DNA of 64,000 nt from Rubripirellula sp. (GTDB taxonomy: Bacteria > Planctomycetota > Planctomycetia > Pirellulales > Pirellulaceae), in assembly GCA_965216875.1 (NCBI GenBank), contig OZ244207.1:7648001-7712000 (forward strand), written 5' to 3'. Positions within the stretch are counted from its first letter, which is position 1. Each line of letters starts with the position of its first letter. Positions 5,569 to 7,085 of the stretch are shown piece by piece. A model generated the notes under the pieces. The model was given only the letters and a program-made list of their open reading frames with translations. It ran no database searches and was not told where the DNA came from. A program made the translations under genes and the position numbers.

Positions 5569-5968
5569 GACGTGATCGCCTCGCTTACGGGCTTTTTGAT
5601 CGACGGAGTTTTGGCCATGATGAAGCTCGGCGGGAAGCAGAAAAGAGACCAAAAAGGTTGGGTAACGTGATGGATTCGTCGACTCTAGCGTAATCTTGGC
5701 TTTGCGGAAGGAAAAAAACGCCTGCCGAACGTGCCCGCTTGGTGACGCAAGTCACAGAATCACCGTGATTGCCGATGATTCACGGCTTTTCGGCGAGCTA
5801 CCGGACTCCGGTTTGTCGCGCCAAAACATGCTCCAATTCAGGCCTAAAAGAGTGGAAGCAAGGGTACGATAACGATGATTCGCGGCGCAATCGTAAGCGG
5901 CAAGACGCTGGCTGCCGGTTCATCAGCAAACTTCGCCGCGAGTGATTCTTGCGGCCGCCCAGAACAAC

Positions 5969-7006
5969 ATGCAACAGACGGAAACATCACAGGAACGATT
6001 GGCGGACGCTCCGCACGACTTTCGGCAATGGCTTGCCGAGCGGTCAGCGAAGCTGATGTTTTCGTTGTCGTTGGTGTTTCTCTTTTGTCAGGCTGTGCTC
6101 GTTGTCCTTTGGGCAGACGTGCCGATGCTGATCGAAAATGCGCGCGCATCGGTTTCTGGCAGCCACGTATTGCTTGATCTTGGCGAAGTCTCGTCGGCCA
6201 CTTTGCTGCAATCGAGTTTTCAAACACTGGTGCTGGTGGTGATGATGCTGATCTGGCCCATCGTCATCGCCGAAGCCGTTTTCCATTGGGTGACCCGTCC
6301 GTGGAATGCCGAGATGCGACGCCAGCACTTCTTGGGGTTTCTGTGTTGCGTCTGCCCTTCGTTGCGCTTGTGCGCTCGAAATCCTGAGATGGGAAATCGA
6401 CTTTGGTTGCCGGGTCTTGGCTGGCGAGTGCCAAACAAACGATTGCGAAAACGTCTCGAGAAACGTTTCAGCCTGCCGATGATCATGATCGCGCTTTTGA
6501 TCATGCCAGTGTTGATCGTCGAGTTCTTTATGAAAACGCAGGTGGCTCGCTACGACTGGCTGCGATTGTCGCTGCACGTCAGCACCGGAGTCATCTGGTT
6601 TGCGTTTGCAGGTGAGTTCATCTTGATGTTCTCGATCGCGGAAAAGAAGATCGAGTATTGCAAGAAGCATTGGATTGATTTGGCGATCATTCTGCTGCCG
6701 TTCGTTTCGTTCCTGCGATCGATGCGTATCCTGCGCGCCTCGCGCGCCGCCAAACTCGTTCAGGTTTCGCAGCTTTCGAAATTTGCTCGCATGTATCGTT
6801 TGCGTGGCACTGCGGCAAAGGCGCTCCGAGCACTCGTGCTGCTTGACCTCGTCCAACGCATGCTCGGTGGCCCCGAGAAGTCGATTCAGCGGCTTGAGAA
6901 ACGGTTGTCCGACGTCGAAGACGAAGCCAAGGATCTGCGCCGACGTATCAATCGCTTGCAACGTCAGCAACGCGAGAAAGCGGAATCGGACACCGCCGAG
7001 GCGTAA
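5969..7006 (+). CDS. Membrane protein with voltage-sensor-like (Ion_trans S1-S4) domain, no pore, C-terminal coiled coil
   Basis: IWFAFAGEF (S2), HWIDLAIILLPF (S3), LRSMRILRASR (S4); no TVGYG or other pore segment. Confidence 0.75.
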   Translation: MQQTETSQERLADAPHDFRQWLAERSAKLMFSLSLVFLFCQAVLVVLWADVPMLIENARASVSGSHVLLDLGEVSSATLLQSSFQTLVLVVMMLIWPIVIAEAVFHWVTRPWNAEMRRQHFLGFLCCVCPSLRLCARNPEMGNRLWLPGLGWRVPNKRLRKRLEKRFSLPMIMIALLIMPVLIVEFFMKTQVARYDWLRLSLHVSTGVIWFAFAGEFILMFSIAEKKIEYCKKHWIDLAIILLPFVSFLRSMRILRASRAAKLVQVSQLSKFARMYRLRGTAAKALRALVLLDLVQRMLGGPEKSIQRLEKRLSDVEDEAKDLRRRINRLQRQQREKAESDTAEA

Positions 7007-7085
7007 CCTTTGAGGGGCGACTGCTATACTCAGTGGTCCCACCAACGCGTTCTCGCCCGCGAAATCTCCCATTCAGCTTCGCATC

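Follow-up and report, generated by a model that had tools for sequence, protein, structure and literature searches.

A family of pore-less bacterial proteins that join a predicted voltage sensor to an S4-less duplicate and a coiled coil

An open reading frame (ORF) in a Rubripirellula genome raises the question of whether a bacterium can carry a voltage-sensing domain (VSD) with no pore attached, or whether such a protein is simply the remnant of a potassium channel. The ORF occupies positions 5969..7006 (+) of the window, the whole stretch of 64,000 nucleotides that was analyzed, and encodes 345 amino acids; all features of the protein described below lie on the same strand (+). Its start is uncertain and may be the GTG at 5942, which is in frame and adds 9 N-terminal residues, the ATG at 5969, or the conserved Met30. 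An earlier note on this DNA had read the protein as a pore-less voltage sensor, and all the motifs that it quoted are present in the 345-residue translation. Across 99 family loci, the mismatch rates at the three codon positions were 0.42, 0.25, and 0.59, with the third position the most variable. An antisense ORF of 342 aa that overlaps the gene (window 6044-7072, minus strand) was free of stops in only 8 of the 99 homologous loci and is a shadow frame. Given the codon-position pattern and the rarity of the open antisense frame, we concluded that ORF 5969-7006 is the coding frame. The stretch was found without differences in contigs of two DNA runs, which are possibly the source of this DNA. 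A promoter scan returned 0 sites, and searches of the full protein against Pfam and NCBIfam gave weak coiled-coil rows only. Hydropathy analysis in steps of 3 placed hydrophobic stretches at residues ~28 to 48, 85 to 108, 121 to 137 (weak), 166 to 187, 202 to 223, and 235 to 256; on the same scale, no 19-residue window beyond residue 260 exceeded 1.0.

We examined the C-terminal half for the elements of a voltage sensor. A basic S0 helix and S1 (residues 157 to 186; 6437..6526) contain an invariant P180 and an acidic residue at E185 (88% E, 7% D), and the acid of mid-S1 is absent. S2 (6557..6634) carries F213 and E216 of the charge-transfer center, each in 150 of 150 sequences, and the S2-S3 linker and S3a (6647..6700) carry Y230, W235, D237, and the invariant P244. 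Conservation of the charge-transfer center in these 150 diverse sequences was thus 100% for F213, 100% for E216, and 86% for D237, and the spacing from E216 to P244 was 28 in every one of them. At the outer counter-charge position of S2, the residue is Thr (T206, 70%); we take this position to correspond to Shaker E283.

In an HHalign comparison with a profile built from 21 VSDs of planctomycete channels, the C-terminal half gave a probability of 96.6% (E value, 5.7e-10) over S1 to S3. The reversed control against the VSD profile still reached 45.8%, over 17 columns, so part of the signal is compositional. When the VSD-only profile was searched against the PDB, 11 of the 12 matches at an E value of ≤10 were Kv1, Kv2, or Kv3 channels (Kv3.1, Kv2.1, and Kv1.2-2.1), all of them weak (E value, 0.09 to 0.7). 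Ion_trans (PF00520) was detected at an E value of ≤1 in 20 of 34 family members, one stop-containing row having been dropped, with a best value of 4e-6, below the range of the curated cutoff. The family HMM matched 6TM channels at about 1e-10, and all 10 of the weak matches in the phylum that we inspected were 6TM channels matched via their sensors. We concluded from the channel-VSD, Kv, and Ion_trans matches that the C-terminal half is, by sequence, a genuine VSD, and it appears to be one complete sensor of the K-channel type.

Structure prediction was less decisive. AlphaFold2 returned an overall pLDDT of 86, with values of 52 to 71 over residues 251 to 290, and S4 was not placed as a clean fourth helix. 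Residues 159 to 255 of the model superimposed on Kv2.1 with the highest sequence identity in the list (Z, 6.8; root mean square deviation [rmsd], 2.7; 89 residues aligned; 25% identity) and on SLC9C1 (Z, 7.1; rmsd, 2.7; 87 aligned), both tied with unrelated helical bundles; the top row (Z, 8.1) was itself unrelated. The model of the N-terminal half had a pLDDT of 91 and matched a NavAb chimera (Z, 6.3; rmsd, 3.5; 94 aligned) and CatSper (Z, 6.2; rmsd, 3.9; 100 aligned), again among tied rows. Foldseek gave no match at an E value of ≤0.001 for either the full or the N-half model, and a further fold search included no VSD among the 50 matches listed. Prediction of a homodimer scored 0.02, which counts neither for nor against a dimer, and coevolution analysis on 150 rows was too shallow and noisy to be of use.

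S4 is long (6701..6805), with R250, R253, R256, R259, K262, Q265, Q268, K271, R274, and R277 in i+3 register, followed by R279. The earlier note had seen a basic residue at every third position, which is correct, and had set a further basic stretch apart from S4, which is not: the i+3 register of RSMRILRASRAAK runs on through that stretch, and the two form one long S4. The spacing from P244 to R277 is 24, 27, 30, or 33 residues and is divisible by three in 221 of the 234 homologs that could be parsed (37 of 271 could not, and the anchor motif itself requires the last basic residue). On average, S4 in these 234 homologs has 6.9 basic residues that keep the register and 0.3 that fall outside it. 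The long forms have an S4 of 27 residues, more than one membrane crossing, and 155 of 233 homologs have Gln at position 268 of the ladder. HMMER aligns the lower half of the ladder to the S4 of Kv3.1.

Such a ladder need not mean that voltage is still sensed. The protein might be an exapted scaffold in which sensing has been lost, the helix with its Arg stripe serves to bind anionic lipids or to shape membranes, and the coiled coil is an assembly rod. Such a reading would accommodate the low confidence of S4 in the model, its capacity to exceed one crossing, its freedom to vary in length by up to three repeats, and the missing outer counter-charge. A surface helix is expected to show i+3/i+4 spacing. 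The strict i+3 register with indels in triplets departs from that pattern, F213, E216, and D237 have been kept, and we consider a scaffold improbable.

Downstream of S4 is a helix resembling an S4-S5 linker (G280..R/K284 x x R287 A L; 6806..6862), with no S5 after it; alignments of the family HMM with channels extend as far as profile position 133 to 134. A cytoplasmic coiled coil follows at residues 302 to 337 (6872..6979; pLDDT, 85 to 96). The C-terminal coiled coil proposed earlier was borne out by a conserved heptad pattern (I306/L309/L313/V316/A320/L323/I327/L330) and by coiled-coil matches in the PDB, which were among the matches listed (best 60 of 141) for phmmer and the full-length profile. 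The spacing from G280 to L309 is 29 to 31 in 148 of 150 sequences. Beyond R297 the tail has a median length of 60 residues and a maximum of 135, and our searches found no output or enzyme domain.

We asked whether a pore is missing from the whole family or from this gene alone, since truncation or misassembly of a potassium channel gene would produce the same outline. In this protein, S4 is not followed by the S5, pore helix, filter, and S6 of 6TM K+/Na+ channels. No K or Na filter motif was found in any of 271 homologous proteins or in any of 100 family-locus ORFs. The tail after R297 reached a maximum 19-residue hydropathy of 1.35 in 232 homologs, compared to 1.8 to 2.4 in five true channels; counted from G280, a single homolog of 233 exceeded 1.6 and was possibly membrane spanning. 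HHalign comparison with the pores of 21 planctomycete channels gave 0.2% for the C-terminal half and likewise 0.2% for the N-terminal half. As the earlier note had proposed should be checked, the homologs too lack a pore. We also considered a hidden or inverted pore helix at residues 121 to 137 and rejected it: the alignment of this segment with S3a continues as far as the proline, and the score against pores is 0.2%.

Two observations could be taken to favor a broken channel, namely, that databases name these proteins “potassium channel protein” and that three genome matches (in G334, G376, and G424) contain one internal stop. Family-wide conservation speaks against it. There are 446 homologs of similar length and 248 representatives at an E value of ≤1e-30, the filter motif and the hydrophobic tail are absent from the homologs examined, and the sequence agrees in two DNA runs. 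Because the filter motif and hydrophobic tail are missing family-wide, we concluded that this is a pore-less sensor rather than a truncation, and we rejected the broken-channel reading as very improbable. The stops are in frame and lie within the matched region (L102 in G334, L110 in G376, and one match in G424), and these matches are possibly pseudogenes or assembly errors.

The N-terminal half had been described earlier as a degenerate second sensor, with internal repeat detection suggested as a check. We compared the N-terminal half with the protein's own C-terminal half (S0 to S3a) by HHalign and obtained a probability of 94.7% (E value, 6e-8) over 87 columns. The reversed control gave 0.3%, and 15 column shuffles gave ≤3.0%; the internal repeat is thus well above its controls. 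The N-terminal half reached only 5.3% against a generic VSD profile. S0' and S1' of this pseudo-sensor (residues 17 to 48; 6017..6112) were placed by HHalign to the protein's own S0-S1 and by hydropathy. They are followed by an unconserved, variable outside loop (residues 49 to 84; 6113..6220) with 1 basic and 4 acidic residues, and the L38-E102 spacing ranges from 30 to 102 in 150 homologs. S2' (6221..6292) has the pattern W-P-x-[F]-x-x-E102 (E, 95%; F, 56%). A short S3a' (6329..6379) contains P130 (99%) and a stub helix with an invariant R133, which is all that occupies the place of S3b-S4.

After P130, only R133 (100%) and R137 (64%) remain before a WLPxLGW beta-hairpin (6398..6427), which is the signature of the family, and there is no second i+3 basic ladder. 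The distance from W152 to P170 is exactly 18 residues in 150 of 150 sequences; the intervals 130-146, 152-170, and 216-244 vary little or not at all. Of the tandem VSDs proposed earlier, the homology of the N-terminal half to S0-S3a holds; a second working sensor is not supported, as the repeat ends at the S3 proline without an S4. The protein is best described from these comparisons as one sensor plus an S4-less pseudo-sensor, apparently one and three-quarter scaffolds with one S4.

We then determined how widely the family is distributed. At an E value of ≤0.001 there were 446 homologs of 189 to 604 aa, which, where named, are called “potassium channel protein” or hypothetical, the automatic label that had been anticipated. 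Among the matches listed (446 homologs in total), 119 of 120 had no Pfam domain. A representative library gave 922 matches, including the 248 strong representatives mentioned above. Among the 80 of 138 genome matches retained, those with names are nearly all Planctomycetota, chiefly Pirellulaceae. Of 401 genomes in the phylum, 20 have a strong match, as do 6 of 41 closer relatives, this genome included, with one copy per genome; the distribution is therefore patchy. The commonest phylum in an Atlas cluster was Verrucomicrobiota, with the phylum known for 67 of 162 members, and the range of the family outside Planctomycetota rests on that cluster. Plasmids gave no family match. Among the shorter homologs (20 matches), 16 were on contigs of <3.1 kb. 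No longer, fused homologs were found at 742 to 2,115 aa, the range of the weak search, outside which 605 to 741 aa falls. A 54%-identical member lies on a contig labeled as a Nitrosopumilus metagenome-assembled genome (MAG) (L045), probably a misbinned planctomycete contig, and a 464-aa homolog (P0088) has a PF01253 domain at its N terminus, probably read-through from an upstream gene.

The gene is single copy in the 8.26-Mb genome and is flanked by a divergent DUF1549/DUF1553 gene on one side and a sulfatase gene on the other. Across 81 family loci we detected no conserved neighbor or operon partner. The best nonoverlapping neighbor cluster was present at 21 of the 81 loci and the next at 17, each including a window ORF; both resemble the common DUF1549/1553 and DUF1501 genes.

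A sensor with no pore of its own could act in trans, docking on a pore-only channel or coassembling with 6TM channels via the coiled coil and so tuning or lending voltage dependence. The retained S4-S5 linker helix is the part that couples to pores, and searches of the genome gave 3 Ion_trans matches, all ordinary channels, and 8 Ion_trans_2 matches, 5 of the latter with no Ion_trans match. Pore-only Kir2.1 and a phosphatase-derived VSD can coassemble, according to one report (PMC13755035). The genomic evidence argues the other way. An ORF with a T-x-G-[YFL]-G-D filter is absent from the flanks of 100 family loci, and the pore of the sister channels described below has no match in this genome at an E value of ≤0.01. 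We followed two proteins with an Ion_trans_2 and no Ion_trans match, L010 (G000:C1:1821796-1822224) and L007 (G000:C1:7230419-7231111), through 40 relatives, leaving out three RCK-type 2TM channels. These two pore proteins were present in 2 of 5 (same genus only) and 1 of 5 family-carrying relatives and do not track the family. We regard a trans-acting subunit as a doubtful explanation.

To place the family among channels, we built a sensor tree of 53 rows, comprising 25 family members and those 28 of 34 channel or fusion rows that scored >5 bits; the tree has an arbitrary root and contains no Hv1, VSP, or TMEM266 rows. Three 6TM channels with a TT[ML]G[ST] filter and a long S4 form a group with the family (support, 97/90), and monophyly of the family has support of 73/94; the three channels were picked by the family profile and are not an unbiased sample. 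Like the family, channels of this type (L112, L114, and L116; PF00520) have a “PM” start to S0-S1, I-W-x-x-F-x-x-[DE]-F in S2, Y..W before S3, a long i+3 S4, an S4-S5 linker, and a C-terminal tail resembling a coiled coil. The family differs in having no S5-P-S6, in its S0-S3a duplicate and WLPxLGW hairpin, and in keeping the S3 Asp that these channels lack. The simplest reading is that a long-S4 bacterial 6TM channel gave rise to the family by losing S5-P-S6 and duplicating S0-S3a, in one order or the other.

Other channels were observed during this survey. The nearest channel relatives of the family (L112, L114, L116, and L118) have a very long S4 and non-GYG filters (TTMGT, TTLGS, or TTMGS and then xYWP). 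In L004 (G000:C1:7747283-7747891), L113, L115, L117, and L119 to L121, which are 6TM proteins with RCK-like tails, LFAGEP, LQP, or TEP takes the place of the filter and there is no GYG; in L120 and L121, a long coiled insert also separates S5 from the pore helix. A separate planctomycete family (L149 to L153; G039, G056, and G041) of 1,300 to 1,500 aa has a VSD and two or three further hydrophobic stretches. Four of its loci were fetched, the three full ORFs parsed contained no filter motif, and tblastn gave no match in this genome.

Since Hv1 shares the outline of a VSD plus a coiled coil, the protein could instead be a VSD-only conduit, in which the path of ions or protons is the gating pore of the sensor, the S4-less N-terminal cradle, or the space between the two halves, and Q268 opposite F213 opens a leak. 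A neutral residue breaks the Arg ladder in 155 of 233 homologs; one source describes how a smaller residue in place of an S4 Arg opens gating-pore currents (PMC13095418), and another refers to the isolated Shaker VSD as a cation channel (PMC5092046). An acid in S1 and RxWRxxR in S4 are given as the two features for recognizing Hv channels in PMC10377628. Neither is present. At the mid-S1 position (E185-7), none of 217 homologs has an acid (I in 172, V in 40, M in 3, and T in 2), E185 being matched to Hv1 E119 by position; there is no acid among the common residues at 169 to 184, and S1 is hydrophobic throughout. RxWRxxR/K was found in S4 of 0 of 233 homologs, any S4 Trp in 10 of 233, and there is no re-entrant filter motif; the low score of the N-terminal half against the pore profile bears on the same point. 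We consider conduction unlikely. The likeness to Hv1 noted earlier is sound for the outline (no pore, coiled coil) and goes no further, given these absences and nearest relatives of the K-channel type, and we conclude that the protein, judged by its residues, is not Hv1.

We propose, with about even confidence, that the protein is a stand-alone, nonconducting sensor of membrane potential that would signal via its coiled coil. As the negative bacterial potential changes, the S4 Arg ladder would slide past F213, E216, and D237. The N-terminal pseudo-sensor may act as a static clamp, its buried E102 probably neutralized by the single invariant R133 (a presumed pairing), and together with the WLPxLGW hairpin it would give the mobile sensor the anchor that a pore domain otherwise provides. 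Q268, a polar residue in mid-S4, is a possible hinge like HCN1 S272. Movement would pass through the linker helix to the coiled coil of a putative oligomer, and there it may change coiled-coil packing or binding to a putative cytoplasmic or membrane partner. Several observations count against a sensor: the low pLDDT of S4, its excess over one membrane crossing in the long forms, the tied structural rows and negative Foldseek searches, the compositional part of the VSD-profile score, Thr at the outer counter-charge, and the lack of an output domain or conserved neighbor.

We also advance a bolder version, somewhat more tentatively. The protein may be a prokaryotic stand-alone voltage receptor derived from K-channel sensors, independently of Hv1, VSP, and TMEM266. 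It would be a pseudo-dimer in a single chain: a cradle lacking S4 would brace, or alternately take in, an extra-long S4 that resembles that of HCN channels and is tuned to the strongly negative bacterial potential. The coiled coil would be the output; in the boldest form, the pseudo-dimer itself would conduct ions.

All known prokaryotic voltage-sensing domains come with a pore, as stated by Chaves et al. in 2023 (PMC10377628), and Kulleperuma et al. describe bacterial sensors as always accompanied by one. Judged by sequence, the present family is a counterexample to that rule, concealed by the name “potassium channel.” It suggests that a 6TM channel lost its pore, as opposed to a free sensor having been the primordial state. 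A literature search of main texts, covering few subscription journals, found no prior description of the family. The combination of a putative pore-less sensor, an S4-less duplicate, and a coiled coil was not found in the sources searched; stand-alone sensors as a kind are already known. The protein is a small, testable candidate for reading bacterial membrane potential with no channel. The natural series of P244-R277 lengths (24, 27, 30, and 33) is a ready-made test of S4 length against gating charge and polarity and might also provide a scaffold for voltage indicators that work at bacterial potentials.

Among known systems, Hv1 resembles the family in its VSD and C-terminal coiled coil, its lack of a pore, and its F/E/D charge-transfer center; the family differs in having ~7 in-register basic residues versus the 3 of Hv1, a retained linker helix, and an extra pseudo-sensor. 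In Ci-VSP and TPTE, which also have a sensor and no pore, the S4 linker acts on a cytoplasmic part, whereas the family, with its short tail after R297 (≤135 residues), has no enzyme domain. HCN1 has an S4 that exceeds the usual length by two turns, and its polar breakpoint, S272, determines the polarity of gating (PMC6904216). An S4 longer than in depolarization-activated channels and a polar residue in the ladder are common to HCN1 and the family, purely by analogy. The sensors of HCN1 and SLC9C1 act on a pore or an exchanger belonging to their own chain, and their relation to the family is one of analogy, with no sequence relationship shown. TMEM266 (C15orf27) is described in two sources as a pore-less VSD plus a coiled coil that senses voltage and is apparently nonconducting (PMC6392501; PMC13095418). 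Compared by that description only, TMEM266 is a vertebrate protein of a Nav-related lineage with no pseudo-sensor repeat, and the family is nearest to Kv-type sensors. Both have a pore-less S1-S4 followed by a coiled coil and no effector domain, as far as those sources describe it, and by analogy it is TMEM266 that the family would most resemble in the way it works.
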